A DNA stretch of 64,000 nucleotides from Bacteroidia bacterium (GTDB taxonomy: Bacteria; Bacteroidota; Bacteroidia; JAIBAJ01): positions 5,052 through 69,051 of the forward strand of contig JAIBAJ010000005.1 of the NCBI GenBank assembly GCA_019695265.1. The letters are read 5' to 3'. Made by a program: the position numbers and the translations under genes. Below are positions 22,501-56,719 of the stretch, piece after piece. Numbering within the stretch: the first letter of the stretch is position 1; every line of letters starts with the position of its first letter. The notes under the pieces are model-generated. The model searched no databases and was not told where the DNA came from. It saw nothing but the letters and a program-made list of their open reading frames with translations.

Positions 22501-23961
22501 ATGAAAGGGGTGGAAAGCATCCTCAACGAACCTTCCGGATGCTTCGAACAAACCAGTATGAGCAGCTACCCCAATGCCATGGTGCTCGATTACCTGAAAA
22601 CCATTGATTCCCACGACGAAAAAATCCTTCAACGTGCAAACCAATTGCTCGACCAAGGCTATAAACGCCTCATCAGCTTCGAAACCAAACAAAAAGGCTA
22701 CGAATGGTTTGGCTCCTCTCCCGGCCACGAAGCCCTTACCGCTTACGGACTTATGCAATTTAACGACATGAAAAATGTGTATGCCTCGGTCGATAACAGC
22801 ATGGTTGACCGTACTGCAAATTGGCTCCTGGCTAAACGCAACGGTAAAGGTGGTTTTATGCGCAATGCCCAGGCACTCGATCAATTTGGCGCCGCAGACC
22901 AGGATATTACCGACGCCTACATCGTGTACGCCCTGTCCGAAGCAGGCTTCGCCAACCAACTAAAACTCGAATACCAAAAAAATGTAGAACATGCCATCAC
23001 CTCCAAAGACCCTTACCTCATGGGTATGATGACCATGGCTGCCGTACAATCCAACGACCGTACCAATGCCGATAAACTCGCTAAATTGCTTGTTAACTCC
23101 CAGGAAAAAGACGGTAGCTGGAATGCAAAAAAACACAGCATCACCCGTAGCGGCGGATTAGGCCTGCGCATCGAAACTACTTCCCTAGCAATCATGGCAC
23201 TTCTCGCCTACGACCAAGGCTTCAACGGCGAAATAAACAAAGCCGTGGAGTTTCTTATCAATAACCGAAATGCCTACGGTGGTTACGGAAGCAGCCAGGC
23301 AACCATACTTTCTCTAAAAGCGCTTACCCAATACGCCAAATTCAATAAAAAAGCCGGCGAAGACGGTACCATCGAACTCTTTGCCGACGGCCGCAAAATC
23401 GCCGAACAAGCCTATACCAAAAATACCAAAGATCCTATCCAATTCAAAAATCTGGAAAAGGAAATTAAACAAGGTAAAACCAAGTTTAAAATCAAGTACA
23501 AAGGTGTAAAAAATGCCTTGCCATATTCTCTCGCAATTACCTACCACTCCTCGCTTCCGGCCAGTAGCGACCAATGTGTTATCGGTATCGAAACATCCCT
23601 CGATGCCAAACAAATTTCCATGGGGCAAACCTGTCGTATGCACATCGAGTTGAGTAATCTTACCAACCAGGGTCAACCCAGTACCATGGCTATTATTGGT
23701 CTGCCAGCCGGTTTGTCGGCTCAACCCTGGCAATTAAAAGAGCTGATGGAAAAGCAAAGCTTCGACTACTATGAAATAAAAGGAAATAAGCTGTTTTTAT
23801 ACTATCGCCAAATGAAACCTAACGAGTCAAAATCCTTTAACCTAGACCTAAAAACCGAATTTCCCGGCACATTTTTGGCCCCGGCTTCCTCGGCGTATTT
23901 GTACTACACACCCGAGTTCAAATGCTGGAAAGCCCTAACTCCCATCACCATCATTCAATAG
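19561..23961 (+). CDS. Bacterial alpha-2-macroglobulin family protein (large, N-terminally anchored)
   Basis: 1466 aa. N-terminal signal or anchor (LPIGLFVLAVALILALNA). SGCFEQTSMSSYPNAMVLDYL resembles the thioester region CxEQ (E. coli YfhM has CLEQ). MG-domain-like repeats. GC is about 48%, higher than the flanks. Confidence 0.8.
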   Translation: MQRFGKSFLPIGLFVLAVALILALNANSIFNPTSIRHLFPAVENELIRTLREKLNRLNQTHPEDRLYLQTDKTFYSPGETIWFSAFLRKGSDFSASDKSEVIHLEFLNPAGAVAKKLDLIAINGQSRGDLLIEEELPGGIYTLKAFSNWMKNDSSFFEKKITVQELVLPRLKMKLDFEREGFAPGEEVVAKLILESNENKALSNHSFRFSVSLGGKEFMNNLSSTGNNGEMFIRFHLPAKLKTGDGLLLVSLDYEGQSESISRSIPIVLNQVKLELFPEGGDLIQNLESRVAFRARNHRGKPTDIKGRVVDQNGKEITSFTSFAKGLGHFNLIPEPGRTYFAQITSPACDDRVELPSALSQGFVLKTGEAQNLDLPIQILSTIPTKASLVATVRGKIYWATEVALASGNNQVIMPLDQFPMGVAQITLFDANGIERCERLAFVNRDKQLRLHIQTDKEKYLPREKVKMTISTTDASGLPVASQLGISVVNDQLLAFADDKQQHLLASLCLQYDIKEPIEEPNFFFDTKESKSLRALDYLLLTSGWRRFSWKEIRTETVPQFGFEGEKAEIYGKILDAYTGKPIQAAFVKLVGTKTTTRSDENGTFRIKKADISSFNQLEIRMTDYQVLTANLTHLNDQGVLYLNSNRPVALIKMVEACANVPMALVKQDEVDAGFADFNWDVVEEKQLAKVPNKERQPARAKPAPKRAQADSIIFRKGDALAKNKAKKEFQNEDMKDMGKWFLPQEEPPIPQQPESHFVRARQFPVSKPEPLQPSDVRTDFRSTLFFDGMLETDRSGKKTIEFYTSDEITSFRITAEGIGENGLPGRTEQTLFTQLPLSISAKIPTSCILGDVVAIPVTIKNNSNTGLSGKLSISAPKGFNIKHEPALTQTLDANQAKTIYLNYEVSGTAQTDSIRISFHSASHSDQLCQAIKTEAKGFPMSLAFSGKQLEAEHEFALSNIVSGSLQVNLTAFPSVVSDLMKGVESILNEPSGCFEQTSMSSYPNAMVLDYLKTIDSHDEKILQRANQLLDQGYKRLISFETKQKGYEWFGSSPGHEALTAYGLMQFNDMKNVYASVDNSMVDRTANWLLAKRNGKGGFMRNAQALDQFGAADQDITDAYIVYALSEAGFANQLKLEYQKNVEHAITSKDPYLMGMMTMAAVQSNDRTNADKLAKLLVNSQEKDGSWNAKKHSITRSGGLGLRIETTSLAIMALLAYDQGFNGEINKAVEFLINNRNAYGGYGSSQATILSLKALTQYAKFNKKAGEDGTIELFADGRKIAEQAYTKNTKDPIQFKNLEKEIKQGKTKFKIKYKGVKNALPYSLAITYHSSLPASSDQCVIGIETSLDAKQISMGQTCRMHIELSNLTNQGQPSTMAIIGLPAGLSAQPWQLKELMEKQSFDYYEIKGNKLFLYYRQMKPNESKSFNLDLKTEFPGTFLAPASSAYLYYTPEFKCWKALTPITIIQ

Positions 23962-36640: not shown

Positions 36641-37063
36641 ATGATTTGGTTTGACAACTATACCATTGAAATGATTAAACAATTTAAGGCGGAGGATATG
36701 AATACCCACCTGGGAATTGAGTTTACTGAATTAACTCCGGATTCAATTTCAGCCAAGATGCCGGTTGATCACCGAACTCGTCAGCCTTTTGGTATATTGC
36801 ACGGAGGGGCATCTGTTGTTTTAGCTGAAACTTTGGGAAGTACCGGAGCCGGACTGGTGGTGGATCCATTGAAATTTCGGTGTGTCGGACTTGAAATCAA
36901 TGCTAATCATATCCGATCGGTAAAGGAAGGTTTTGTACATGGTACAGCCAAACCCGTCCATCTTGGCAAATCAACTCATGTATGGGCAATAGAAATAAAA
37001 AACGAAGAAGGCAAATTGGTTTGTACCTCGCGAATAACTATGGCCATTTTACCAATTGCTTAG
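36641..37063 (+). CDS. PaaI/YdiI-family hotdog-fold thioesterase
   Basis: [15 protein letters not shown]...[28 protein letters not shown] aligns closely with E. coli YdiI (MIWKRKITLEALN...[28 protein letters not shown]). The start was trimmed from the ORF's upstream ATG. Confidence 0.8.
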   Translation: [140 protein letters not shown]

Positions 37064-38199
37064 TCTGATTCCGGTTTGGTTTTCAAATTTATTTTGGCCG
37101 AAATGGCGTGGTGGTCACTTAGTTCTTCCGGATGGGTTTCAAAAACAGTAGTTTCAAATTGAGGGTCATGTAAAATGAAATCAATCCGAAACGATGGAGC
37201 TGTGCCAACATAGGTTTGTCCTATACCTACCCCTTTTTGAATAAAAGCATCTTTTAAACCAGTCGATAGCCTGTTGTAAGTATAGGTGGTTGGGGAATCG
37301 TTAAAATCTCCGCAAACAATTACCGGATGCGGACTTTGAGCTATGTGGCTGGCAACAGTATCTGCTTCCCTTGCTCTAACCTTGGCAGCATTTCTTAATC
37401 TCCTGGCTAAATTCTTCCAGCCATTGGATTTTACATCAGATTTTCCATTGCCAACATCACTGATAAATTCGTAATCCTCTTTTTTCAATCGATTGCTTTC
37501 CAGGTGAAGGTTATAAACCCGAATGGTGTCTTCATTAATTAGTAAATCCGCAAAGCAAGCCGCATTCCCTCTCGAATCTTCAAACTCGAATCGACCTTTG
37601 TTAACAATAGGCCATCGACTGAAAACCATCATTCCATATCCGGTAAAAGGCTGTTTTAATACATACTTCTCAAAGTAGAAATGCTTGAGCCCATTTTGCT
37701 TCATAATCGAATCTAAGGTGATAAATTTGTCTTTGGGGCTATTAAAGAACTCCTGAAAACAAATGATATCAGGTTTTGCCGATTTTATCTGATCAAGTAT
37801 TTTGTTTCGCTTTTCCCAGGGGTTGCGCCAATTATACCAATCAAACAAATGCACATTATACGATAAGACATTAATTCCGGGTGCAGCCAGAATCTCCTCT
37901 TCGGTTGGCGGCAGCCTGAATTGGATTAATCGATTGAAATGAATTAAACTAATCGATAAGCAAAGAATAGGAATTAATAATGGCCAACGCAATACAATTA
38001 GCCAATAAAGCAATACCACCAACTCCAAACCTGCCAGAATCGAAAATGCGGTAGCCAAAAACCAGGCGGGCCAAAAACTTAAAGGACTGATATAGGAAGA
38101 TGCCATGGTCAACAACAATGCAGTGGAAATCAGCACACTGATAACCATCATAATTTTGTTGAATAAGGATAGCTTACGTTTCCCGGGGTTTTCTGACAT
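37060..38199 (-). CDS. Membrane-anchored endonuclease/exonuclease/phosphatase (EEP) family protein
   Basis: N-terminal TM helices followed by EEP motifs (LSYNVHL, DIICFQEF, VCGDFND, ..SDHHAISA). Confidence 0.75.
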   Translation of the reverse strand: MSENPGKRKLSLFNKIMMVISVLISTALLLTMASSYISPLSFWPAWFLATAFSILAGLELVVLLYWLIVLRWPLLIPILCLSISLIHFNRLIQFRLPPTEEEILAAPGINVLSYNVHLFDWYNWRNPWEKRNKILDQIKSAKPDIICFQEFFNSPKDKFITLDSIMKQNGLKHFYFEKYVLKQPFTGYGMMVFSRWPIVNKGRFEFEDSRGNAACFADLLINEDTIRVYNLHLESNRLKKEDYEFISDVGNGKSDVKSNGWKNLARRLRNAAKVRAREADTVASHIAQSPHPVIVCGDFNDSPTTYTYNRLSTGLKDAFIQKGVGIGQTYVGTAPSFRIDFILHDPQFETTVFETHPEELSDHHAISAKINLKTKPESD

Positions 38200-38452
38200 A
38201 CCTGCTTTCAGGCAACAAACATAGTTTATTTGTAGAAAACAACTTTTTCGAATTAAAACTTTCTGTCAACCTTGTTTCTGTTGGGAATTCTAAATTAATT
38301 CCCCTTGAATTTATTCTCCACCAACCTTAATCTAAGAGTCTTGATTTACCCAAAGTAGAAGGATTCCGTTTCCATGACTGGTATTTCCGCTTCGTTGTTA
38401 AATCATTTTTCAATCCAAGCCACGGACTTTCCTTTGCAGAAAATTTCCATAC

Positions 38453-39769
38453 ATGAAACATTGGATTTTGCTTATTTGGACGCTACTACTTACTACCTTT
38501 TCAGGAGTCGCACAAACCCGGCTCATCAGCCTGAAACAAACTTTGGACTTAGCTAAACAAAACAATCTGAACTTACAGTCGGCTCAAATTAGTGAACAAT
38601 TGGCCAAGGTAGACCAACTTCTTTCCATTTCACAAGTGATGCCTCGTCTGAGTGCGGGAGGTTCCTTCGATTACTATACCAAAATGCCTGCACAGGTTAT
38701 TCCAAATAAGCTTTTTGGAGGCGGAGAGGGTTATACGAAAGTGGCATTTGGATTGCCTTATGTAGCCTCAGGCAGTTTAGATTATTCCTGGCCATTGTTT
38801 CAAGCTGATAAATGGGCCGCTTTAAAAACAACCGCTCTAAAACGCAAACAGGCAGCTAATAATGCTGATTTGGCCTGGGAAAATGTAAAAATCAGTCTGA
38901 TTCGGCTTTGGTACCAAACCGAAATGATTCAACAACTAATGGATCTAAACCTAGAGAATCAAACTATTGCCAACGAATTGAAAAATGCTGCGGAATCCAA
39001 ATTCAAAAACGATGTAAGCAATCCTTCCGAATTTAATAGATCTTCTGTTCTGGTACTTGGCATCGAAGAAGCCTTGATAGCCAATCGCTTTGCACTGGGC
39101 AACAATTATGAAGCATTTAAATTGCTGCTTCATATTCCGGCTTCTGATTCAGTATTCCAGCAAAAGCCAGGCAAGGAGATTCAAACTTTACAAGCTACGG
39201 AAAGCCTGGGAAAAGATGCCGATCGCCCATTGCTTAAATTGAAAACCGTGGCTTACGAAGTTTCGAAAAGTCAATACCTGGAGCGACAACTTGCCAGACT
39301 GCCTAGGCTTTCAATCGGCGGTAGATATGTTTACCAGGCTCAAGATAGTAAGTTCTTTTCCAACAGCACCGTTTCTTTCGATTATAGTACCATCGGTTTG
39401 AAACTTGATTTCCCGATTTTTCAAGGTGGGGCTATACACCTGAGTGGACAAGCGGCAAAATGGCAAATACGAAGTGCAGAATTAGAAAAAGAAATAGCTT
39501 ACGACCAATTGCAAAAGGAGCATCAAGATTGGTCCAATGAACTTAAACAGGCCATTGAAAAAGAAGGTATTCTGAAAAAGAAAATGGAACTGGCGGCAGA
39601 GAACCTTCGAATTGCCCTCGTTCGATACCAAGAAGGCTTAATGGGAATTGATGAATACTTCAATATATTTTATGAAAATTCAACTGCCCGAATTAACTTT
39701 TGGCAAAACCATTACAACGGAATACTTTACTCCAATTTGTTACAACTTAATTCATTCGAAAACCAATGA
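38453..39769 (+). CDS. TolC-like outer-membrane efflux protein
   Basis: 438 aa. Signal MKHWILLIWTLLLTTFSGVAQ. Two-repeat alpha/beta architecture typical of OEP/TolC. First gene of the efflux operon, with an overlapping stop/start to the next gene. Confidence 0.75.
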   Translation: MKHWILLIWTLLLTTFSGVAQTRLISLKQTLDLAKQNNLNLQSAQISEQLAKVDQLLSISQVMPRLSAGGSFDYYTKMPAQVIPNKLFGGGEGYTKVAFGLPYVASGSLDYSWPLFQADKWAALKTTALKRKQAANNADLAWENVKISLIRLWYQTEMIQQLMDLNLENQTIANELKNAAESKFKNDVSNPSEFNRSSVLVLGIEEALIANRFALGNNYEAFKLLLHIPASDSVFQQKPGKEIQTLQATESLGKDADRPLLKLKTVAYEVSKSQYLERQLARLPRLSIGGRYVYQAQDSKFFSNSTVSFDYSTIGLKLDFPIFQGGAIHLSGQAAKWQIRSAELEKEIAYDQLQKEHQDWSNELKQAIEKEGILKKKMELAAENLRIALVRYQEGLMGIDEYFNIFYENSTARINFWQNHYNGILYSNLLQLNSFENQ

Positions 39770-40863
39770 ATACTAAATACCATCTGATTTGGTTGTCCTT
39801 TCTCGGACTTGCTGCTTGCAAAAACAAAAACCAAACCATTCGCCCTCAATTTCAACCTTTAACCGAAGCGGTGTATGCCTCCGGCGCACTGTATCCGGAA
39901 CATGAATACAAAGTGCTGGCCAATATTGACGGCTACCTCGAACAAGCCTTTGTGGTGGAAGGGGATAGCATCTCCAAAGGACAAACCTTGTTTAAATTGA
40001 GTTCCCATACCCGTGATGCGCAACAAAATGCTTCAGCCAATATTTACCGAATTACCCAAGAAAACGCCAAGGAAAACGCTCCGGTATTTATGGATTTGAA
40101 ATATAAAATTCAAACAGCTAAAACAAAACTATCCAACGATAGTGTTCAATACCTTCGCTATAAAAACCTCCTGGCCCAAAATGCCATTTCCAAAGCTGAA
40201 TTCGAACGAATAGAACTCCAATTCAAAGCCTCCTCAAACGATTTAAATTCCTTAAAAGAACAATGGGCTCGTTTGAAAAATTCTACCTTCCTTGAACTTC
40301 AACAAGCTGAAAGCAATTACAAAGTTATAAGCCTTCAACAAGGCGATGAACAAGTAAAAAGCTTTATCCATGGTTTGGTATTCGAAATCTATAAACAAGT
40401 TGGAGATGCCATTAAACCCAACGAACCTATCGCATTGGTTGGTGAAAAAGATAAGTTTATGGCCAAATTAAGTGTGGATGAAAGTGATTTCGAAAAAATT
40501 AAAATTGGTCAAACAGCTTTCATCTCCCTCGATGCCTTTCCGGGGAAGGTGTATCAAGCCAAAGTGAATAAAATCTTTCCTAAACTGAACAAAGTAGAAC
40601 AATCCTTTCGGGTGGATGTGGTATTTATTGACCCCTTGCCGGTAAAAATTTATGGGCTCAACCTGGAAGCCAACATTGTTGTTAATCAGGCTGAAAAGGT
40701 TCTAACCTTACCCAAGAAAGCCATACTTCCCGGCGATTCGGTACTGGTTCTTCAAGGCAAAGAGAAAAAAATGGTGAAAATTAAAAAAGGACTGGAAAAC
40801 ATGGAGTTTGTTCAAATACTCGAAGGCCTTAGTCCGGAAACCGATGTGGTGATTAATCAATAA
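39766..40863 (+). CDS. HlyD-family periplasmic adaptor (membrane fusion protein)
   Basis: 365 aa. Lipobox LGLAAC. Coiled-coil middle and a beta-barrel C-terminus (..KIGQTAFISLDAFPGKVYQAKV..). Confidence 0.75.
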   Translation: MNTKYHLIWLSFLGLAACKNKNQTIRPQFQPLTEAVYASGALYPEHEYKVLANIDGYLEQAFVVEGDSISKGQTLFKLSSHTRDAQQNASANIYRITQENAKENAPVFMDLKYKIQTAKTKLSNDSVQYLRYKNLLAQNAISKAEFERIELQFKASSNDLNSLKEQWARLKNSTFLELQQAESNYKVISLQQGDEQVKSFIHGLVFEIYKQVGDAIKPNEPIALVGEKDKFMAKLSVDESDFEKIKIGQTAFISLDAFPGKVYQAKVNKIFPKLNKVEQSFRVDVVFIDPLPVKIYGLNLEANIVVNQAEKVLTLPKKAILPGDSVLVLQGKEKKMVKIKKGLENMEFVQILEGLSPETDVVINQ

Positions 40864-40872
40864 CAGGAAAAT

Positions 40873-42138
40873 ATGAGCTTAGCCCTATCCTTTTCGATTG
40901 CCAAAACCCACCTGCTTGCCCGTAAAAAGCAAAGCATTGTGGCTATGCTGGGTGTAACCTTTGGGATTTCTATGTTCCTGGTAATGATTAGCTTCATGAC
41001 CGGAGTAAACCACTTTTTAAACGATTTAGCCTTGGACGGCTCTCCGCATATTCGACTTTACAACCCTGTAAAAACCGATAGGGTGGCAATTTTGGAAGAG
41101 CTTCAGAGAAAACAAGGTAAAACCAATGAATTGGTAGTGGTTCATCATCAACGACCCAAGAACGAATTACCTAAAATCTATAAGGGTATTCAAATTGCCA
41201 AAATCATTGAAAAAATGCCCAATGTGTATGGCGTTTCTCCACAGGTAACAACCCAGGTTTTCTATAACAACGGTCCTATTCAGATATCCGGAATGATCTG
41301 TGGTACCGATATCCTTAAAGAAAACAAACTCTATAACCTAACCAATAAAATGGAAACCGGATCCATCGAAGGACTACTCTTCAATCCGGAAGGAATCATT
41401 TTAGGAACCGGACTGGCAAAAAAAGTAAATGCAAAAATTGGTGACCGCATTAGCATCACCACTCCTTTCGGAAACACCTTGCTCCTAAAGGTTGTTGGAA
41501 CATTTAGTTTTGGAATTGCCACGGTTGACGATACCCGAAGTTATGCTTCCCTCGCTACTGTGCAAAAAATCCTGCAACGCGATCCGGGTTATGTGACCGA
41601 TATTCACTTAAAAATGAAAGATTATACCCAAGCCAAACCTTTTGCCAAACAACTCGAAAATATGTTTGGGTACAAAGCAGAAGATTGGGAAACAGCCAAC
41701 GCTGCTTTCTTTGCCGGTGATAAGATTCGAAATGTTATGACCGCTGTAGTTTCTATTACCCTCCTGGTAGTTGCCGGTTTCGGTATCTACAACATCATGA
41801 ATATGCATATCATCAATAAAATGAAAGATATTGCCATTTTAAAAGCTACCGGTTTCGAAGGACGCGACATAGTTACCATATTTTTACTCCAATCGATCAT
41901 CATCGGTGTGTTGGGTGGAATTCTTGGTATTAGTATCGGCTACTTCTTTTGCTACCTCATCTCCATTACTCCTTTCCCGGAAGGCAGTATTCTGAAAATT
42001 GAAACCTTCCCGGTTAATTTCGACCCCATGTTTTATGCAGCAGGCGTATTTTTTGGATTCCTTACAACCCTCTTTGCCGGTTACTTCCCTTCCATCAAGG
42101 CAAGCAAAATCGATCCGGTTGAAATCTTAAGAGGTTAA
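40873..42138 (+). CDS. ABC transporter permease, FtsX/MacB family
   Basis: 421 aa. N-terminal TM, a large periplasmic domain, and a C-terminal FtsX 3-TM bundle (..AILKATGFEGRDIVTIFLLQSIIIGVLGGILG..). Confidence 0.85.
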   Translation: MSLALSFSIAKTHLLARKKQSIVAMLGVTFGISMFLVMISFMTGVNHFLNDLALDGSPHIRLYNPVKTDRVAILEELQRKQGKTNELVVVHHQRPKNELPKIYKGIQIAKIIEKMPNVYGVSPQVTTQVFYNNGPIQISGMICGTDILKENKLYNLTNKMETGSIEGLLFNPEGIILGTGLAKKVNAKIGDRISITTPFGNTLLLKVVGTFSFGIATVDDTRSYASLATVQKILQRDPGYVTDIHLKMKDYTQAKPFAKQLENMFGYKAEDWETANAAFFAGDKIRNVMTAVVSITLLVVAGFGIYNIMNMHIINKMKDIAILKATGFEGRDIVTIFLLQSIIIGVLGGILGISIGYFFCYLISITPFPEGSILKIETFPVNFDPMFYAAGVFFGFLTTLFAGYFPSIKASKIDPVEILRG

Positions 42139-42148
42139 CCTATTTACC

Positions 42149-42820
42149 ATGGTACTTCAAGCTAACTCTATCATCAAATACTTCCATGAACCGGAAGACT
42201 TCCAGGTACTAAAAGGTATTTCGTTCGGTATCGAAAAAGGAACCTTTACCTCCATAGTCGGTAAATCAGGATGCGGTAAGTCAACGCTACTCTATATCCT
42301 GTCTACCATGGACACCGATTACCAAGGACAATTAGAAATTAATGGAAAAGTAGTTACCGGACTTAGTCAAAACGAACTTTCCCGATTTCGAAACCAACAC
42401 CTGGGATTCGTTTTCCAATTTCATTACCTGTTACCCGAATTCTCCGCACTTAAAAATGTCATGATTCCTGCCCTAAAACTCGGAAAGTTTAGCACGGAAG
42501 AAATTGAATCACAAGCCATCGAAAAACTGCGAATGGTGGGCATGGACGAATTTGCATTGAAACAATCCAGTAAACTCTCCGGCGGACAACAACAACGGGT
42601 AGCCATTGCCAGGGCTCTTATCAATAACCCAACCATTATCATGGCTGATGAACCAACCGGAAATCTGGATAAAAAAAATTCAACCAAGGTTTTTGATATC
42701 TTTATGGAATTGACCCAAAATAACAATCAAACCATCATTGCCGTTACCCACGACAATGAGTTTGCTGAAAAAGGCCACCGCATTATCGAAATGAGTGATG
42801 GTTTGATTATTCGCCAATGA
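42149..42820 (+). CDS. ABC transporter ATP-binding protein (MacB/LolD-type)
   Basis: Walker [13 protein letters not shown]-loop, signature [15 protein letters not shown], Walker [13 protein letters not shown]. Confidence 0.9.
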
Positions 42821-43860
42821 AATTAGACCGTAAATATTACCCCTACATCGGAATTTTCTTGCTCTGCCTGATGGTAACTTTAATTCGGATTGCAATTTTT
42901 TTGCATTACCCTATTTTTAGTCGCTTCCCGGCTTATATCATGTTGATTGGCTTGCCCATACAATTTGTAGTTATGTCTGTGATTTGGAATGTGGTTCAAT
43001 GGATCAACAAACAGCTATCTCGAATATTACCTTTCGAGAATCGCCCAGTGATGAGAGTTTTAACTCAAGTGGTTGTATCTACCACCTTGTTTATGCCTAT
43101 TTTCATTGTTAGCGCACAACTAACCAAACCCTATGCTCCGGTAGAAATTACCCCTCCATTGTATATTCTGGGTCTGACCCTCGTTTTCATGATGCTGCTT
43201 CTGATGAATTTCGCTTTTTATGCTTTCGAATTCTTTACCCATTGGCAAGCGGCTACTGAAGAAAAAACCCGACTGAAATTACAAGCACATGCCCTCGCAG
43301 TGGAAAAATCCGAAATGCAATTTCACCACCTGCAAAATCAAGTAAATCCACATTTTCTTTTCAATGCATTGGCTTCGCTCGATAGCCTAATTCATAATAA
43401 CCCCCAATTAGCTACCCAATTCCTGGGACATCTTTCCAAGGTGTATCGCTATGTTCTGCAAAATAGCTCCAATAACCAGGTAAGCCTTCAGACCGAATTG
43501 GAATTCGTTGAACATTATGTTTCCTTACTCCATATTCGGTATGGCTTAGCCCTGCAAATTCAATTTGATATTCCTCCTTCTTGCCTCGATAAACTCATCG
43601 CTCCGGTTACCTTGCAAATGCTAATAGATAATGCTATTAAGCATAACGAAATCCACAAAGAGTATCCGTTACGTATTGAAATTCAAGCTAACGAATCCTA
43701 TTTATCGGTTCGTAACAATAAACAGAAGAGACAAGGTTTGACCGATAGCAATGGAGTAGGTCTTAACCAATTGCGAGAATTGTATTCCTATCTGGTGCCG
43801 GATGCCACCATTCAAATTGATGAAAGTAATCAGAATTTCGAAGTAAAAATTCCGTTTTGA
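42817..43860 (+). CDS. LytS/YehU-family sensor histidine kinase (membrane), with no cognate LytTR regulator nearby
   Basis: 347 aa. N-terminal multi-TM region. His_kinase motif NPHFLFNALASLDSLIH. HATPase motifs LIDNAIKHN and ..SNGVGLNQL. Overlaps the ABC ATPase stop by 4 nt (ATGA). Confidence 0.8.
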   Translation: MKLDRKYYPYIGIFLLCLMVTLIRIAIFLHYPIFSRFPAYIMLIGLPIQFVVMSVIWNVVQWINKQLSRILPFENRPVMRVLTQVVVSTTLFMPIFIVSAQLTKPYAPVEITPPLYILGLTLVFMMLLLMNFAFYAFEFFTHWQAATEEKTRLKLQAHALAVEKSEMQFHHLQNQVNPHFLFNALASLDSLIHNNPQLATQFLGHLSKVYRYVLQNSSNNQVSLQTELEFVEHYVSLLHIRYGLALQIQFDIPPSCLDKLIAPVTLQMLIDNAIKHNEIHKEYPLRIEIQANESYLSVRNNKQKRQGLTDSNGVGLNQLRELYSYLVPDATIQIDESNQNFEVKIPF

Positions 43861-43940
43861 TTTGCGCGCCTGACAACAAGTTCACAAATTCACTGGAAGT
43901 ATTTCCAATCAATTCGCATTTCAATTGATTGTTTTTGGTT

Positions 43941-44855
43941 TTAGTTTTTCCACTTCAGGGTTGTAATCGCTTCGTTTACAGTTAATTGTACAGGCAAACC
44001 CAGTGCTAATGGCAAATTCCGGAATATATGTCCGGCCTCCAAACCAAATGCCACCGGATAACCATACTCGCCCACAGCTTCCCGAACAATCTCTTCAACC
44101 GTTCGCCCAAATGGCTCTGCATTGTCCTTCATCTCACTCATCCCTCCAACTACCAGTCCTGCCAACCCTTTCAATTTCCCTGCCCGTTTCAGTTGCCAAA
44201 GCATACGATCAATATGATACAGGTACTCATCCAGATCTTCCAGGAATAGAATTTTTCCATCCAGGTCCAATTCTGAATCGGATCCCGAAATGGAATAAAG
44301 TATTGACAAATTCCCGCCAACCAATACCCCTTCTGAACTTCCAAACCGGTTGTTGGAATGGGGTTTAGCTATCATCGCTTCCAATCCTTTACCTTCCCAA
44401 AAATCTTTTAATCGTTGTAATGCCTCTACATCTACCGAATTGGGCTGAAAATTCAGCGACATTGGCGAATGTAAACTAGGTAATCCAACTTGTTGATGAA
44501 CATGGGCATGTAATACAGTAATATCGCTAAAGCCACATAACCATTTGGGATTGTTTTTAAATCCATCCCAACTCAATCCATCTACTATTCGCACAGTGCC
44601 GTATCCACCTTTTGCAAACAACACCGCTTTTATTTCCGGGTCATCCAGGAAAGCCTGTAAATCATGGGTTCGTTGGGTGTCATTGCCTCCAAACTGACGG
44701 TCTTTTTCAAAAATATACTTGCCCAATACTACCTCAAAACCCCATTCTTCCAAGGTATTCAAGCAGGGTTGAATGGCTTCCTTAGTAACAAATCGAGCAG
44801 TGCAACAAATGCCAATTTTATCCCCTTTTTTTAGGGAAGGTATCAAATGGTACAT
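43941..44855 (-). CDS. LD-carboxypeptidase (peptidase S66, LdcA/MccF family)
   Basis: 304 aa. LKKGDKIGICCTARFV N-terminus, then the conserved ..GFSDITVLH.. and ..LEAGHIFRNLPL.. S66 blocks. Confidence 0.8.
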   Translation of the reverse strand: MYHLIPSLKKGDKIGICCTARFVTKEAIQPCLNTLEEWGFEVVLGKYIFEKDRQFGGNDTQRTHDLQAFLDDPEIKAVLFAKGGYGTVRIVDGLSWDGFKNNPKWLCGFSDITVLHAHVHQQVGLPSLHSPMSLNFQPNSVDVEALQRLKDFWEGKGLEAMIAKPHSNNRFGSSEGVLVGGNLSILYSISGSDSELDLDGKILFLEDLDEYLYHIDRMLWQLKRAGKLKGLAGLVVGGMSEMKDNAEPFGRTVEEIVREAVGEYGYPVAFGLEAGHIFRNLPLALGLPVQLTVNEAITTLKWKN

Positions 44856-44860
44856 GGTAG

Positions 44861-45622
44861 TCAGGGCTGTTTAAAATACGGATCATTGGTTAAAAGCTCT
44901 TGTTCTAGTTGAGCATAAACCCTTTGTTTCAAAATCGGTACATCAGCTTCGGTTAAACCTAGCACCGAAATAGGTTCCAAAAATTTAACATGAATAGTAC
45001 CCGGACCTTGAATAAGCAAGGTGGGGTGTGGCATCAGGGTGCGAACATTAAATAGTACCACCGGCAACAAAGGAACCTGCATTTCTATTGCAATCCTAAA
45101 AGCCCCTTCTTTAAAAGGTCCCAGGGGATTAGGTCCGGTATTTCGGGTTCCTTCGGGCATAATTAATATGGAAAACCCTTGTTGAAGTTCTCGCTTTACC
45201 TGTTCCACGCTTTTTTTACGACTTTCTGCATCGTTTCTATCCACATTGACACAGCCTACCTTAAACAAAAAACCCATCACCGGTATATTACTTAACTCCT
45301 TCTTAGCCATCGCTTTAAACGGTATTGGTATGCCGGATGCCATCGCAAAAATATCCAAGGACGAGGAATGATTTCCTACCACTATATAATCTTTGCGTTG
45401 TTTAAAATACTCCAATCCTTCCACTTTCAGTTTCATCCCCATCAAAAAAATCCAGGCATTGCTCCAAGCCTGGTACCATGGAAAAAGCTTAAAAAAACTA
45501 CGTTTCCCATAAATCCAATATGCCACCAATGCCAGCGGGTAGGAGGTAGCTACAAAGGCAATAAATATGAAAAGACCCCAAAAGGTATACAGGAAACGAA
45601 GAAAATTCTTTACTGGTTGCAT
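44861..45622 (-). CDS. 1-acyl-sn-glycerol-3-phosphate acyltransferase (PlsC-like)
   Basis: N-terminal TM. HX4D motif VVGNHSSSLD. FKEGAFRIAIEMQVPLLPV matches acyltransferase block III/IV. Confidence 0.8.
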   Translation of the reverse strand: MQPVKNFLRFLYTFWGLFIFIAFVATSYPLALVAYWIYGKRSFFKLFPWYQAWSNAWIFLMGMKLKVEGLEYFKQRKDYIVVGNHSSSLDIFAMASGIPIPFKAMAKKELSNIPVMGFLFKVGCVNVDRNDAESRKKSVEQVKRELQQGFSILIMPEGTRNTGPNPLGPFKEGAFRIAIEMQVPLLPVVLFNVRTLMPHPTLLIQGPGTIHVKFLEPISVLGLTEADVPILKQRVYAQLEQELLTNDPYFKQP

Positions 45623-45717
45623 AACTATTATCTAGCAATAATACATAAATTCAGTCATACCATACAGCCTTGCTTCAGGAGTAAGAATAAGTAATTTGCT
45701 TTTTATACTCCTGTTTA

Positions 45718-45812
45718 CCAATGTTATTTGAAAAATATTCCAAGAACTAGTTTGAAAATTACAGTGGTAAATGCCGATGCAATAGCTGTTTGGCAGTTTT
45801 GGCATGCATCAT
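45718..45812 (+). repeat. Repeat S copy 2
   Basis: See 6538-6628. Same orientation, about 75% identity. Confidence 0.6.
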
Positions 45813-45949
45813 TGGCCTATTGCAGATTGGCAATCGGTATTAAATCCAAATTCAGCACAATCAGGTGGGTAATTAAGCCTTAAGTCTATTTTTTTCAAAA
45901 CCCACCGGATCCGATGTTTACATTCAAATTATGGCAGGTTCAAGTTGGT

Positions 45950-46128
45950 GCTTTTTTGGGGGGTTCCCCTAACGGGTCGGGCTTTCCGTTCCAATCTTTT
46001 TGCTCGTGCCTCGACAAAAAGGATTTCCACTGCAATCCCTAACCCGGGTGCAAGCTATACGTGGTGGTGCAGGTAATTAGCATGGTGCTTTCTAATAGCT
46101 TTCGCAGCAATTGAAATCTCCGATTGGC
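45950..46128 (-). repeat. Repeat R2 copy 2 (inverted relative to 6751-6925)
   Basis: Near-identical reverse complement of 6751-6925. Confidence 0.75.
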
Positions 46129-46242
46129 ATTAAAAAACGCCTTTCTCCATTGCCACCGCTGCAAACAAGGCCAAGTGGAAGTAAACCTCCCCCAAAAAAC
46201 CACGTTCATTCACCATCCCAAGCCCATTTCATAGTTACACCG

Positions 46243-46410
46243 GTTGGGTTTGCACCCCGGGCAACGATTGAGGCAAGTAGCCCACAGGACACCTACGGCG
46301 ATAGCCTAGGGGGACGAGGACTACAGCCGAAAGCGTGACCCGAACGCCATTTGCCTGTACATTGGTTGTGCAGGTAGTTGGTAGGCGTGAAGGGGGCCCG
46401 CCAACATACA
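46243..46410 (+). repeat. Repeat R1 copy (plus orientation)
   Basis: GGTTGGGTTTGCACCCCGGGCAACGATTGAGGCAAGTAGCCCACAGG..GGCGATAGCC..GAGGACTACAGCCGAAAGCGTGACCCGAACGCC..GGGGGCCCGCCAACATAC. Confidence 0.7.
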
Positions 46411-46451
46411 ATTAAAGAAAAATAAAGTGAGCGAATTTGTGTTGTTTCAGA

Positions 46452-49400
46452 CTAAAAATCCATACTAAGAGAAAGGTAAAATATGGGTTTTAGAATAATG
46501 CCATCCACTGCACCCCAGGCATAATCGGCTCGAATAAAGTAGCCTAAAATTTTAGTTCGTGCACCGAAACCAAAGCCATAAACCAAGGGGTCGGTCGTGT
46601 TTTTTAACTTAATGGTGAGTGATCCGTCCTGAATAATTTTGGTATTAAAGGTATTTCGATCAGAGTAGGGGGTTAATCCGTTCCAAGCCGTTCCAACATC
46701 GCCAAACCCAATCAATTGAAAATTGTTGATGAAGTCGGATTTGATAGGCCTATTAACCAAATAACGGAAAATTGGCCAGCGAATTTCGGAATTGATAACT
46801 GCAAAATTGGTTCCATTTCGAATATTTTGGTAGAAACCTCTCATATTGGTAGCAATGGCCTGGTATTGGTAATTTTCGGTTTGGGACACCGGAATAGAAT
46901 TGTCATACTTGGTACCTAACCAATTGTCTACTCCGCCCAGGTAATACAGCAGTTTTTCATTTCCCAGGCTTGAACTTCCGGCTACCCGGTTAGCCCAAAT
47001 CAAATCTCGGTGAATGCGGGTATAGTGTCTGAAATCGGCACCAACCACAGCGAAATAATTGGTATTGTTGAGGTGGTGATAGAACTCCCCAAAAATTTTG
47101 TAACGTGCCCCTTGGTAAAGGTTTAGGCCTCTTGAAATGGTATTATCGAAAATATATTCCAGTTTTACACCACCCAAATAGCTATTGTCGTTCGGTTTGC
47201 GCAAATTGGCTTCATCTACACTCAGGTAGGCAACCCTGTCGTGGCGACCCAGAATGGTGGCTTTAACTGCCGAATTCTCAGTAAATGGGTAACGCAAGAT
47301 ATAGCTTAGGGTGTGAGACTGAACCTTGTTAGGGTAATTGGCTGCGGGGTTTGAAAAGGCCTGGCGATGGAAAAACACCTGTTTATCGAGGCGTTTTTTG
47401 AGATTTTGCCAACTTAGAAAAAATTCATTGGAATTTAGATTGGCGGCCAGTCTAAAACCACCAACAATTTTATAGTCTTCGAACAGGTCGCTTGCACCTA
47501 ACTTAAACAATCCGTTGATTCCCGGATTAAAATAAACGGCGCCTCCACCGGTGTAACGCTGATAGGAGCTGGAGGTAAAAGAATTGTCTAATTGGGTTAC
47601 CACATAGTCGGTTGAGAACCGGATTTCATAGGGGCGTTGTTTAGCTAATTTAAAGGTGATGGTATCTTCTGCAAGTCCGGAGGCTCCGTGTTTTTGTTTA
47701 TCTTTTTCTTTGCGTTTAGACAACCTGTCTCCGCTGCCTGCCGGGTTATTGGTTTGGTTAACGGCATTGATGGAGTCGCGGATTAGTTCCACACCGGCCT
47801 TTTTCTTTGGGGCATAGGTTTCATTGGTAAAAACGTAATTGTCTATATCAATTTCATCGGGATTGGACTTAGTTTTGGGTGGTTCAATTTTGGGTTTTTC
47901 AACCGGGGTGGGTTTGGCTTGAACCTTTTCTTTTTTCTTGGTTTCCCGTTTAGAATCTTTTTCTTGCTTGGATCGAAAGAAGTTGGAACTTAGTTTTACT
48001 TCTTCTTTTTTATCGCTCGAAATGGGTTTGGTAAACAATTTATAGCGACCGTTTTCAAAGTATACTTCACCCAACACATTGGCTTTGGGGGCAGCATCCA
48101 TTTGCAAGAGGTTGCGTTGGTAATTGGTGATAGGGTAGGAGGTGGTGAACCAACGGTAATGGGTTATGGTATCTATAAAGGCAATGGTGCTGTCGATTCG
48201 GGCTAAATAGCGGTTTTGAATTCCGTTGGCATCGCTGATGTAGGCAAAGTGGGAGGTGTCGTAAGCAATAGGCATTATTTCATCGGCGAATTTGGTTGAA
48301 GAAACCCGCTTTAAAACCTGGCTTTTGGTTTTGTAGTCATAAATGAATAAATCGAGGTTGGCATCGCGGTGAACAATAGACGAATCTTTTGGTTTTATAG
48401 TATCATTCACCCGGTTGGAGCTAAATACTACTTCACGACTTTTATTGATAAACCTTGGATACAAATCATCCCAGGAATCTTTGGTAACCTGGAGATAGGT
48501 ATTGGAAATAATGTCGTAGATGAATATGTCACTTTGGCCAAATTGAACAGCCGAAAAGGCAAACTTTTTACCATCGTCCGAATAGGAGTAATCCAGTATT
48601 TTATCGAAGTTATGCAAGGGGCGAGTATCAATTTCTCGGGTATCAACATTGTACATCGAAAGCAGAATTTTACCTTTTTTCTCCGTAATCCAGCTTAGTA
48701 GTTGTCCACTTGGATGCCAGGCTAAAAGTGGATAGCTGTAATCGGTTTTTTGTACACTTCGGTATTCTTGTTTCAGTAACTTTTTCTGGCGTTTTTTAGA
48801 ATCCAGATTCTTTATGAAAATCCGGTACAAACCCATGTCATTCACTACATACGCCGCTTTTTGTCCATCCGGACTCAATTTCAAATTCTGATAAACCCTA
48901 CCTTTCCTGAAGCGTTTCAAAACCAGGTTGCCCTGAGGAGTTTCCAATTTTTTTAATGGCTCGATGTATTGTTTTTTGTAATACTCTTGCCATTGTTCTA
49001 CCAGGGTTTTCAATTGAACGCCCAAAACGAAGTTAAATCCATTTTCCACATTCCGGCTCACTCTGGTCATGTAAAGGATATCGGAAATAACCGATTTTCC
49101 GTAACTATCGGCAATAAAGCTCCACAAGGAATGCCCGGCATAGGTGGCCTGATCCCCGCTTAAACGATTCAGTTTGTTAAACTTTCCGGAAACGATTCCG
49201 TCTTTGACCTGGTTTTCTATATCGGCATTCCAGTCTTTTGAAATATACGATATCAACCCATTCATATACCACTCGGGAAGGTTTAAAAAGGCTGAGTTTC
49301 GGATAACATCTTTAATACTGCCACCATACATCATTTGTCCAATCATTACCTGAGCAATTCCGGCCCTGATTTGTTCTTCCAAATGCCGGTGGTCCCCATC

Positions 49401-49799
49401 GAAATACAGAACCATTTTACCGTCTACCAGGTGGGTGAGGCCGCCGGTATTATAGGTAACATCGGTATTTAGACCCAAATTGCTTTGCCTCAGGTCGGAG
49501 AGTTTGTTGTAAACAATAAATTGCAAGCGTTCGTCAATGGTATAATCAAAGCGTTTTTGAATTTCCACCATTGATTTTTCGGCGGTTTTGGCCGTATAAA
49601 TGGCCAATTCTTTACCACCCAAATAGAAGTAAATATCGTAATGTTCGTACCGGTAAAATTGCCAGAGAAATTCATTAAACTGGAGGCGGTTCTTACCAAA
49701 AGTCATTTGCGACCCGTTGTAAAACTGGGCATTGGCCTGCAGGCTGAGCAAACCTAATAAACTAGCATAAAAAAATCGACCAAGCAGTTTCACACGCAA
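46452..49799 (-). CDS. Large secreted protein with a TolB-like beta-propeller region and a C-terminal beta-barrel (hypothetical)
   Basis: 1115 aa. Signal MRVKLLGRFFYASLLGLLSLQANAQ. The middle region has PD40/WD40-like repeats (..YSDDGKKFAFSAVQFGQSDIFIYD..). The C-terminal ~330 aa have alternating hydrophobic beta-strands and end ..YLSLSMDF (terminal Phe). Confidence 0.5.
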   Translation of the reverse strand: MRVKLLGRFFYASLLGLLSLQANAQFYNGSQMTFGKNRLQFNEFLWQFYRYEHYDIYFYLGGKELAIYTAKTAEKSMVEIQKRFDYTIDERLQFIVYNKLSDLRQSNLGLNTDVTYNTGGLTHLVDGKMVLYFDGDHRHLEEQIRAGIAQVMIGQMMYGGSIKDVIRNSAFLNLPEWYMNGLISYISKDWNADIENQVKDGIVSGKFNKLNRLSGDQATYAGHSLWSFIADSYGKSVISDILYMTRVSRNVENGFNFVLGVQLKTLVEQWQEYYKKQYIEPLKKLETPQGNLVLKRFRKGRVYQNLKLSPDGQKAAYVVNDMGLYRIFIKNLDSKKRQKKLLKQEYRSVQKTDYSYPLLAWHPSGQLLSWITEKKGKILLSMYNVDTREIDTRPLHNFDKILDYSYSDDGKKFAFSAVQFGQSDIFIYDIISNTYLQVTKDSWDDLYPRFINKSREVVFSSNRVNDTIKPKDSSIVHRDANLDLFIYDYKTKSQVLKRVSSTKFADEIMPIAYDTSHFAYISDANGIQNRYLARIDSTIAFIDTITHYRWFTTSYPITNYQRNLLQMDAAPKANVLGEVYFENGRYKLFTKPISSDKKEEVKLSSNFFRSKQEKDSKRETKKKEKVQAKPTPVEKPKIEPPKTKSNPDEIDIDNYVFTNETYAPKKKAGVELIRDSINAVNQTNNPAGSGDRLSKRKEKDKQKHGASGLAEDTITFKLAKQRPYEIRFSTDYVVTQLDNSFTSSSYQRYTGGGAVYFNPGINGLFKLGASDLFEDYKIVGGFRLAANLNSNEFFLSWQNLKKRLDKQVFFHRQAFSNPAANYPNKVQSHTLSYILRYPFTENSAVKATILGRHDRVAYLSVDEANLRKPNDNSYLGGVKLEYIFDNTISRGLNLYQGARYKIFGEFYHHLNNTNYFAVVGADFRHYTRIHRDLIWANRVAGSSSLGNEKLLYYLGGVDNWLGTKYDNSIPVSQTENYQYQAIATNMRGFYQNIRNGTNFAVINSEIRWPIFRYLVNRPIKSDFINNFQLIGFGDVGTAWNGLTPYSDRNTFNTKIIQDGSLTIKLKNTTDPLVYGFGFGARTKILGYFIRADYAWGAVDGIILKPIFYLSLSMDF

Positions 49800-54853: not shown

Positions 54854-56719
54854 ATGCGGTTTGACCCTAACCCAAATTCCAATTCAAGCCTTTCGGTAGA
54901 AAAGCGAATGAGCATTGATTTGGAATTGTATCTGGAAAAGGCGAAAAGGGCAGAGCTGGATAGGCATTACTATTTAGCCGGAGAGTTTTATATGCAGGCC
55001 GGTTACATTCGAAAAGAGTTGGGATATGCGAATTTGGCCATTCTGGATTTTGAACAAGCCTCCTTAAATTATAAAAAGGAGGAAGATTGGAGAAACTATT
55101 TGAAAGCCAATGATGAGCAAATTTTCCTTTATAAAGAACAGGAGTTAACAGACAGTGCCATCCGGACTCAAATTGCCAGTTTGAGTGTGGTGAAAAGACT
55201 GAAGGATCTGGAACAAGAGTTTAAAATTCAATTTGAAATTGGTCAGAATTTTCAGGTTTTGATGGATTTTGAATCGGCCTTAAAGCAGTATCAAACCAGT
55301 TTAACCCTGGCCGAACAACTACACGACAAAAGTAAGATCAACTTATCGGTATTTAATCTGGGTAATATCTATAATTGGCTTAATAAATATGAGCTTGCCG
55401 AAGAATTACTGTTAAAAGGGATAAATACCTTAGATTTGGGTGATGACCTAAAAACCAAGCTATATTTTTATGGAAGTTATGGCATTTTACTTTCTAAGTT
55501 AAGAAAACTGGAAGATGCCGAATACTGGTTTTTAAAGGTGTTGAAGGAGGTGGAAGGGAAGGAGGATTTTGATAATCTGAAATTCAATATTCTAAAAAGC
55601 AAGGGAATATTGTATTTCAATTGGAAAAGGTATGAAGATGCAATTTCTGCTTTGAAGGAAGCTGAGGAATTTGGCAAGAACATTCGAGCCTATAGTATTC
55701 ACTCGTTGGTATATGAGTTTTTGTCCAAATCTTATGAGGAATTAGGTGATTATAAAAGCAGTGTTATCTACTTTAAGAAGCATTTTGAACTTCATCAGCG
55801 CACTACCCAACAAAGCATCAATGTGAGGGAAAAAAACATTATGCTTCGGTATGAAATGGAAGATGCCAAAAAGGATACTGAGTTGTTTAGGTTAAAGAAC
55901 ATTGACTTAGCTCTGGCATACAAGGAAATTGAAACCCAAAAAGAAGAGATTGAGCAAAAAAATAAGAACATCACGGAAAGTATTGAATATGCCCGAAACA
56001 TACAAGAAGGGATTTTGCCTGATTTAAGACAATTTCAGATATTTAAGGAAAGCTTTGTGTTATATCGCCCCAAAGACATTATTGGAGGTGATTTTTACTG
56101 GCTTGCCAACAAAGGTTCATTGTCTATTTTAGCCGTTGCCGATTGCACCGGTCATGGTGTTCCCGGAGCCTTGATGTCTATGATTGGTCATAACTTGCTC
56201 AATCAGGCAGTGAATGAAAAGGAACTTGTTGATCCGGGTGAGATATTGTATTTTCTCCACGAAGGCATACATCGGATTTTTAATCAAAACCGCGCTAACC
56301 GGAGAACGTATGACGGCATGGATATTTCCTTGATTACGATAGACCGAGCAACCAAAAACCTTTTTTATGCAGGCGCTATGCGTCCTATGTATTATGTTCG
56401 GCAGGGAGAGTTGAACAGGCTTGATCCAAATAAAAACCCAATTGGTGGAATAGAAGGTGAAGAAGCCGTTTTCTCTACCCAGGTTTTAGCGTATTTGGCT
56501 GATGATACTTTTTACCTGTTTTCGGACGGATATGCAGACCAGTTTGGAGGGCCCAATGGAAGGAAATTTATGATGAAACGGTTTAAAGAAACCTTGTTGG
56601 AAGTGGCTCAATATCCCTTAACCAGGCAAATGGAATTGTTGGAGCATGAGTTAAACGATTGGAAGGGATTTTTGGAACAGGTGGACGATATACTAATAAT
56701 CGGAATCAAAATAGACTAA
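54854..56719 (+). CDS. TPR-repeat and PP2C (SpoIIE-type) serine phosphatase
   Basis: 621 aa. N-terminal TPR-like repeats, a coiled-coil linker, and PP2C motifs GGDFYWL..AVADCTGHGVPGALMSMIG, DGMDISLI, LFSDGYADQFGG and DDILIIGIK. Confidence 0.85.
   Translation: MRFDPNPNSNSSLSVEKRMSIDLELYLEKAKRAELDRHYYLAGEFYMQAGYIRKELGYANLAILDFEQASLNYKKEEDWRNYLKANDEQIFLYKEQELTDSAIRTQIASLSVVKRLKDLEQEFKIQFEIGQNFQVLMDFESALKQYQTSLTLAEQLHDKSKINLSVFNLGNIYNWLNKYELAEELLLKGINTLDLGDDLKTKLYFYGSYGILLSKLRKLEDAEYWFLKVLKEVEGKEDFDNLKFNILKSKGILYFNWKRYEDAISALKEAEEFGKNIRAYSIHSLVYEFLSKSYEELGDYKSSVIYFKKHFELHQRTTQQSINVREKNIMLRYEMEDAKKDTELFRLKNIDLALAYKEIETQKEEIEQKNKNITESIEYARNIQEGILPDLRQFQIFKESFVLYRPKDIIGGDFYWLANKGSLSILAVADCTGHGVPGALMSMIGHNLLNQAVNEKELVDPGEILYFLHEGIHRIFNQNRANRRTYDGMDISLITIDRATKNLFYAGAMRPMYYVRQGELNRLDPNKNPIGGIEGEEAVFSTQVLAYLADDTFYLFSDGYADQFGGPNGRKFMMKRFKETLLEVAQYPLTRQMELLEHELNDWKGFLEQVDDILIIGIKID

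Follow-up and report, generated by a model that had tools for sequence, protein, structure and literature searches.

An orphan histidine kinase at the end of a Bacteroidia efflux operon and the regulator missing beside it

Why a sensor histidine kinase should be kept at the end of an efflux operon with no response regulator beside it is the question raised by a locus of a Bacteroidia bacterium (assembly GCA_019695265.1, contig JAIBAJ010000005.1, positions 5,052 to 69,051, a stretch of 64 kb referred to here as the window). Five open reading frames (ORFs) follow one another on its plus strand at 38453-39769, 39766-40863, 40873-42138, 42149-42820 and 42817-43860, with junctions of -4, +9, +10 and -4 nt, and are assigned to an outer-membrane channel, a periplasmic adaptor, a permease, an ABC ATPase and a kinase of the PF06580 type. 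The original prediction, made from this sequence alone, described a set of tightly packed efflux genes with overlapping junctions or gaps of less than 15 nt, ending in an orphan kinase that might monitor its transporter and whose regulator would be encoded elsewhere. The packing and the efflux assignment are confirmed by the ORF coordinates and by Pfam. What that prediction missed is that the loss of the regulator is derived, from an operon of six genes.

Loss of the regulator from a six-gene operon

The gene that follows the kinase is convergent and encodes an LD-carboxypeptidase (43941-44855, minus strand), lying 80 nt after the kinase stop. Just past 44855, where a LytTR gene was looked for, stands an ORF of 253 amino acids on the minus strand (44861-45622) that Pfam identifies as an acyltransferase. 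This ORF and every other ORF of the window were rejected as a hidden LytTR regulator on the strength of that assignment and of tblastn: two operon-type REC-LytTR queries found no LytTR regulator across the 64-kb window, the only REC domains matched being those of two REC-PAS-PP2C proteins. There is no LytTR remnant in the 80 nt between the kinase stop and the convergent gene, and the regulator was likewise not found in the sequenced flanks of a relative, locus L004. The kinase is therefore an orphan by position, as had been predicted, with no REC-LytTR gene adjacent to it and none in the window.

The same junction recurs elsewhere. An identical kinase is found on contigs of less than 2 kb from three other samples, two of which carry the same convergent downstream gene, and a 98% variant of the kinase has a 3' flank near-identical to that of the window. 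The relatives P0002 and P0003 (71-73% identity) have the same five-gene operon with the kinase last on three further contigs, one of which (18.8 kb) shows the same divergent Exo_endo_phos gene upstream and a different convergent gene downstream. Recurrence of the kinase-terminal junction on contigs of independent samples means that the missing regulator cannot be put down to an assembly artefact. The source genome of the window is in neither the genome nor the metagenome contig collection that was searched, and the best kinase matches in them are 43-46% identical, with 43-45% for the closest in the genome collection.

The census of related loci covered 80 loci from genomes and 74 from metagenomes. 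After the window clade, the nearest kinases share 40-48% identity and are assigned by their sources to Chitinophagaceae, Flavitalea, Flavisolibacter, Flavipsychrobacter and Agriterribacter. About 40 related loci contain the same operon (OEP, adaptor, MacB, ATPase and kinase) together with a sixth gene, which encodes a REC-LytTR regulator of 253 amino acids and in most cases overlaps the kinase stop by 4 nt. The linkage of kinase and efflux genes seen in the window is thus conserved in these loci: of 42 junctions scored between ATPase and kinase, 22 have overlapping stop and start codons, and in the others the gap does not exceed 77 nt. Every MacB-linked kinase with room downstream is followed by the regulator (13-14 genome loci and 23 metagenome loci, plus L006-L008). 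Among all surveyed kinase homologues an adjacent regulator is present in 137 and missing in six, three of which belong to tandem-kinase arrays or have a regulator 1.2 kb off.

Since the MacB-linked relatives all carry the regulator and homologues with it outnumber those without it by 137 to 6, its presence is judged to be ancestral. The regulator-less operon is confined to the window clade, which comprises the window, L001/L002, L004/L005 and L090; because this clade alone lacks the regulator, the orphan state is best seen as a derived loss from the locus. Within the clade the upstream synteny is kept, including the divergent Exo_endo_phos gene, while the downstream genes differ, and the break falls exactly at the 3' end of the kinase gene. 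Judged from these comparisons, the orphan kinase is the product of a lineage-specific regulator loss from an ancestrally six-gene operon, and the window clade is a single derived exception.

In two related loci a second PF06580 kinase (about 950 amino acids) with its own LytTR regulator lies 1-3 kb past the six-gene operon (L013, 12122-15741; L019, 10450-14125). The paralogous LytTR regulators beside these operons are candidates for cross-regulation.

A putative operator and a kinase under selection

The region upstream of the operon contains a perfect tandem direct repeat, TTCCGTTTC-N12-TTCCGCTTC, on the plus strand (38364-38393), with its first copy at 38364-38372, its second at 38385-38393 and a period of 21. 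The repeat was spotted by eye and then sought by pattern search, which gave this single match in the window where 0.01 would be expected by chance. It stands 60 nt upstream of the ATG of the first operon gene, a position shared by 10 relatives. The same period-21 repeat is found 59-61 nt before the OEP start in L004, L007-L010, L016-L018 and L059; slightly varied, it is also present in L006, L019, L020, L022 and L025, and most other scanned relatives have it upstream of the operon. The consensus across loci is TTCCGYYTC-N12-TTCCGYYTC. The sites of almost all LytTR regulators are reported to consist of repeats of 9-11 nt that are 11-13 nt apart (PMC4847170), and the 9+12+9 repeat of the window has this geometry and lies upstream of a promoter. 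We infer from geometry and co-occurrence that the repeat at 38364-38393 is the operator of a LytTR regulator.

The repeat is not confined to operons of the window type. It is also found before kinase-regulator pairs that are unlinked to a MacB pump (L023, L024 and L029) and before operons of the OEP-MFP-ABC-ABC type (MFP, membrane fusion protein) that adjoin kinase-regulator pairs (L021, L023 and L025). Because it precedes non-MacB pairs and pumps, the repeat goes with the regulator subfamily and not with one pump type, and its presence before the OEP-MFP-ABC-ABC operons suggests that this subfamily governs more than one type of pump. At the last three loci, from Mucilaginibacter and one other genome of the Bacteroidota, the repeat stands before the kinase-regulator pair and also before the neighbouring efflux operon without a MacB-type permease (L021, 9671-9700; L023, 7837-7866 and 9875-9904; L025, 1860-1889).

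A probable Bacteroidota-type promoter lies between the repeat and the first gene (38406-38436, plus strand). It consists of a weak -33-like TTTT (38406-38409), a 19-nt spacer and a -7-like TTCCTTTG (38429-38436), and transcription is predicted to start near 38441, leaving a leader of about 12 nt. In an alignment of 14 loci (A2) the conserved blocks are the two repeats, each followed by nnTG, a -33 TTTG about 12 nt past the second of them, after another 20 nt a TnnnTTTG box, and an A-rich leader of about 12 nt. The Bacteroidota promoter consensus is TTTG/TANNTTTG (PMC6847099), and the operon promoter fits it save for the missing near-invariant A at -11. With an activator site beside it, a -7 box that falls short of the optimum would fit an activator-dependent, inducible promoter. 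A sigma-70 promoter scan, whose promoter model is unsuited to Bacteroidota, gave counts at or under the shuffled expectation. The divergent Exo_endo_phos gene (37060-38199, minus strand) has a perfect Bacteroidota -7 box, TATGTTTG, in the stretch 38200-38232 read on the minus strand, and L004 has TAAGTTTG in the matching place before its divergent gene. The perfect -7 box of the divergent gene supports the view that this organism uses promoters of the TANNTTTG type.

Although synonymous sites are saturated between the window and L004, conservation persists in their intergenic regions, mainly in the repeat and promoter blocks, in the leader and in the promoter belonging to the divergent gene. 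Since both loci are regulator-less and both conserve these blocks, the putative operator has been maintained without an adjacent regulator gene.

The kinase gene is also maintained. Synonymous sites are saturated between the window and L004 (kinase dN 0.22), and the ratio of non-synonymous to synonymous substitution rates (dN/dS) was therefore taken from closer pairs. For the kinase it is 0.088 between the window and L089 (16 synonymous and six non-synonymous differences) and 0.064 between L004 and L090, comparable to the 0.013-0.043 of the pump genes. The kinase reading frame is intact in the window, L001-L003, L089, L004, L005 and L090, which are independent samples. These sequence comparisons indicate that the kinase is under strong purifying selection and is not decaying.

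The kinase and its pump among known systems

The kinase (42817-43860, plus strand) has 347 amino acids and is predicted to comprise four transmembrane helices, a signalling helix, a dimerization and histidine phosphotransfer (DHp) domain and a catalytic domain. Its ATG at 42817 overlaps the ATPase TGA at 42818-42820 (ATGA, 42817-42820), as had been read from the sequence, and the start codon chosen is supported by homologues that align from residue 1. The PF06580 match covers residues 168-243 with 83 bits (gathering score 25.2), and the peptide NPHFLFNALASLDSLIH cited in the original prediction is present in the protein. The phospho-acceptor H179 within NPHFLFN is invariant in alignment A1, and the N-box LQMLIDNAIKHN (266-277) and the G2 motif GVGL (313-316) are conserved; together with the NNKQ motif these are among the family-invariant residues, all of which the window kinase retains. 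The NNKQ motif (residues 300-303) is invariant in the same alignment across a 340-aa Bacteroidota kinase subfamily, no member of which has a significant Pfam HATPase_c match.

The sensor region contains no known sensor domain, and the 5TM LytS-type sensor (5TMR_LYT) gives no Pfam match in the kinase even at E<=10; an NCBIfam search of the kinase gave no match. The earlier label "LytS-family" holds for the PF06580 core and fails for the sensor domain, which makes it a loose one. In the AlphaFold (AF2) model (mean pLDDT 75.6) the four transmembrane helices are joined by loops of 4-6 residues, and the fourth runs into the signalling helix, which is followed by the DHp hairpin and an alpha/beta catalytic domain (224-346). 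The model shows no periplasmic domain. Its top Foldseek match is the kinase domain of GanS (6swk, E 6.5e-9), which is also the sole solved structure with a sequence match to the kinase (E 1.5e-14). GanS (PDB 6swj/6swk) is a YesM-like PF06580 kinase from a sugar-sensing system of a Gram-positive bacterium; the likeness is confined to the DHp and catalytic core, and the sensor of GanS is unlike that of the window kinase.

The LytS/LytR, BtsS/BtsR and YpdA/YpdB systems share with the window system the PF06580 phospho-acceptor domain (NPHFLFN), an operator composed of two direct repeats with a 12-nt spacer and, in the relatives of the window, a REC-LytTR partner. The adjacent REC-LytTR gene that marks such systems is absent from the window and present in the roughly 40 related loci, and the best NCBIfam match of the relatives' regulator is BtsR, far under the cut-off. 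The window kinase differs from LytS, BtsS and YpdA in having neither a 5TM LytS-type sensor nor a GAF domain; it is much shorter, with a distinct four-helix sensor, and NNKQ replaces the G1 box. The N-box and G2 motif of a catalytic domain are found in it, whereas the canonical G1 box and an HATPase_c match are not. The target also differs, being an efflux pump in the window system and lrgAB or carboxylate transporters in the others.

The first gene (38453-39769, plus strand) encodes a predicted outer-membrane channel of the TolC/OEP family with 438 amino acids (Pfam OEP, E 1.3e-29; NCBIfam TolC subfamily match under that model's cut-off). The second (39766-40863, plus strand) encodes a periplasmic adaptor, or membrane fusion protein, of 365 amino acids (Pfam HlyD_D23 and HlyD_3), with an NCBIfam RND_mfp match of 112.3 bits (cut-off 94.9). 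It is followed by a MacB/LolC-type permease of 421 amino acids with a periplasmic core and an FtsX transmembrane domain (40873-42138, plus strand; Pfam MacB_PCD and FtsX), for which the top NCBIfam match, LolC/E, is under the cut-off, and by an ABC ATPase subunit of 223 amino acids made as its own polypeptide (42149-42820, plus strand; Pfam ABC_tran, E 2.3e-33), with LolD- and MacB-like NCBIfam matches under their cut-offs. All NCBIfam equivalog matches of the pump parts fall under the cut-off, the adaptor subfamily being the sole match above it, while permease, ATPase, adaptor and channel each score above the Pfam gathering scores. These assignments place the pump among the tripartite ABC exporters of the MacAB-TolC type, its ATPase being separate. 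A LolCDE identity was considered for the permease and ATPase and rejected because the operon co-transcribes an adaptor and a TolC-like channel with them.

The window pump resembles the MacAB-TolC pump of Escherichia coli in its MacB_PCD and FtsX permease, MacA-like adaptor and TolC-like channel. In E. coli MacB the ATPase is fused, whereas in the window pump it is a separate polypeptide, as in LolCDE; the window pump further differs in having the channel gene inside the operon and a dedicated two-component sensor that is co-transcribed. At the other end of the operon, an A/T-rich 9-bp hairpin (CAATCAATT / AATTGATTG) followed by TTTTTGGTTTT was read from the plus strand at 43906-43942. It forms in the minimum free energy fold, with an unremarkable folding energy (z -1.1); a terminator scan, whose counts were at or under the shuffled expectation, left it unflagged. 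On this weak evidence the hairpin, which lies in the 80-nt gap between the kinase and the convergent gene, may mark the end of the operon.

The kinase had also been likened to Bce-type systems, in which the kinase senses through its ABC permease. The BceAB-BceRS system, which senses and detoxifies antimicrobial peptides, does share several properties with that of the window: the genes of a two-component system are linked to those of a MacB/FtsX-superfamily ABC transporter, the kinase lacks an extracytoplasmic sensor domain, and the transporter genes are induced by the regulator, as is proposed for the window system. In BceB a large extracellular domain separates the seventh of ten transmembrane helices from the eighth, and Bce modules have been described for Firmicutes only (PMC11009047). 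The permease of the window has 421 amino acids with one MacB_PCD and one FtsX domain and is not of the BceB type. Bce modules have neither adaptor nor outer-membrane channel, their kinase BceS comes from another family and has two helices, and their regulator BceR is of the OmpR type; the window system, in contrast, has a MacB/LolC-type permease in a tripartite pump and a four-helix kinase with a PF06580 core, all in a single operon, and the regulator of its relatives is of the LytTR type. The analogy is reasonable as a way of working, but membership in the Bce group does not hold, as the two differ in permease architecture, kinase family, regulator family and phylum. Sensing through the transporter is, for the window kinase, a hypothesis.

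Elsewhere in the window, a Flavo-1 small RNA (RF01705) is matched at 45971-46060 on the minus strand (61.4 bits, gathering score 42) within an ORF-poor stretch (45640-46450), the other approximately 700 nt of which contain no ORF of at least 100 amino acids and no Rfam or tRNA match. An ORF of 1115 amino acids (46452-49799, minus strand) matches no Pfam family at E<=0.001. A bacterial alpha-2-macroglobulin of 1466 amino acids (19561-23961, plus strand) has MG2, A2M, TED and receptor-binding domains. Two paralogous REC-PAS-SpoIIE response regulators (SpoIIE being a PP2C phosphatase domain), a TPR-SpoIIE protein and a PAS-HisKA-HATPase kinase are encoded at 3951-5933, 17045-19021, 54854-56719 and 1748-3502, all on the plus strand. 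This gene set suggests a network of the partner-switching type that is unrelated to the efflux operon.

What the orphan kinase may sense and control

The gene content, the derived loss of the regulator, the purifying selection on the kinase and the conservation of the repeat are established here. As to the existence of a regulator elsewhere, its binding to the repeat, the activation of the operon and the nature of the signal, we infer a circuit that is probably still intact, in which the kinase phosphorylates a LytTR regulator encoded elsewhere and this regulator activates the operon through the retained operator. The five genes would be the pump-plus-sensor part of an ancestral six-gene module, widespread in Chitinophagaceae-like Bacteroidota and read from one promoter with a LytTR-type tandem repeat just upstream of its -33 element. 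Because the kinase has no periplasmic domain, it is proposed to detect an intramembrane signal, which may be either a membrane-active pump substrate (or a perturbation) or the working state of the pump itself. The phosphorylated regulator would bind both repeats as a dimer and activate the weak promoter, giving more pump and more sensor in a positive autoregulatory loop. In the window lineage a rearrangement with its breakpoint at the 3' end of the operon would have taken the regulator gene away while the circuit was kept, and the regulator would now be a relocated orthologue or a close paralogue of the same DNA specificity. The retained LytTR-type operator and the purifying selection on the kinase argue that such a regulator still drives the operon, which makes the predicted location of the regulator elsewhere in the genome the best reading of the data.

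Several observations weigh against this circuit. The regulator gene of the window's organism was not found, and geometry and co-occurrence are the whole of the case for LytTR binding to the repeat. The entire kinase subfamily has NNKQ in place of the canonical G1 box (DxGxG), and the window kinase has no significant Pfam HATPase_c match (no PF02518; HATPase_c_5 at 14.3 bits, cut-off 22), so that kinase activity is an assumption. Of the DHp positions under strong conservation in regulator-linked kinases, the clade keeps 80-88%, where the mean is 95%, and in the window the conserved HKENE loop is swapped for NSSNN. Both features could reflect relaxed or changed contacts with a partner. A comparison aimed at clade-specific rewiring of the DHp surface on which the regulator docks showed no more than a few substitutions fixed in the clade (E220N, I231V and M263P) and a modestly lower retention of conserved positions.

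The diverged DHp positions and the NSSNN loop are also what might be seen if the kinase had fallen silent toward regulators and were kept as an accessory or regulatory subunit of the pump, its operator being served by a paralogous two-component system through regulon merging. The adjacent regulator is gone and was not found in the window or in the L004 flanks; related genomes hold paralogous kinase-regulator pairs, and some pairs in other Bacteroidota are preceded by the same type of operator. However, the clade shows no variation at H179, the N-box or G2, and across the full length of the protein, with its catalytic domain, dN/dS is 0.06-0.09; a purely structural subunit is disfavoured because it would not need catalytic residues, and this explanation is considered unlikely. 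Even less credence, very little in fact, is given to the idea that the kinase is a decaying remnant or the regulator's absence an error of assembly. Its only support is that absence, and it is contradicted by reading frames intact in independent samples, a dN/dS far below 1, the same junction in independent assemblies and a gap of 80 nt free of LytTR remnants.

A further possibility concerns the input step and is compatible with the output step of the intact circuit. As in Bce systems, the kinase, instead of sensing a compound itself, may form a complex with the MacB-type permease/ATPase and read transport activity (flux sensing). In the model the four-helix sensor has only short loops and no periplasmic or known sensor domain, all 42 scored junctions place the kinase gene tightly against the ATPase gene, whether overlapping or within 77 nt, and BceB and MacB belong to one transporter superfamily (PMC11009047). 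In the rearrangement of the locus it was the regulator that was lost and the kinase that remained beside the pump, the reverse of the usual strong adjacency of kinase and regulator. On the other side, more distant kinases of the family (no more than about 43% identity) with the same operator adjoin OEP-MFP-ABC-ABC operons that have no MacB-type permease, and many others have no identified adjacent transporter, 51 of the 80 genome loci being without an ABC gene immediately upstream. Foldseek finds a weak resemblance to BceS in 8g3a (TM 0.28), at best equal to that with generic kinases. Flux sensing of this kind is thus a tentative proposal, somewhat doubtful on present evidence, yet with more in its favour than the conversion of the kinase to an accessory subunit.

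Two-component control of efflux pumps is well known, and orphan kinases are so common that being one is nothing unusual in itself. The known kind to which the locus belongs is the ABC detoxification module under two-component control, of which the window is a lineage-specific variant with the regulator gene gone from the operon. No published description of the six-gene module was found in the literature searched. The module is clearly delimited and is conserved across about 40 related loci; its predicted operator, TTCCGYYTC-N12-TTCCGYYTC, keeps a constant position with respect to a Bacteroidota-type promoter, so that the regulon can be tested directly. The natural variant found in the window, in which the regulator is gone and the kinase remains coupled to the pump, offers a handle on sensing through a pump as in Bce systems. 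It is conceivable, if a speculative and rather improbable step further, that in the six-gene module Bacteroidota possess their own counterpart to the Bce modules of Firmicutes, assembled from unrelated signalling parts, with a loop-less PF06580 kinase that physically reads the activity of a MacB-type tripartite pump; the unit under selection would then be the pump-kinase pair and not the kinase-regulator pair. If transporter-dependent sensing proves true, the logic of Bce systems would extend from Firmicutes to Gram-negative Bacteroidota, carried there by different protein families.

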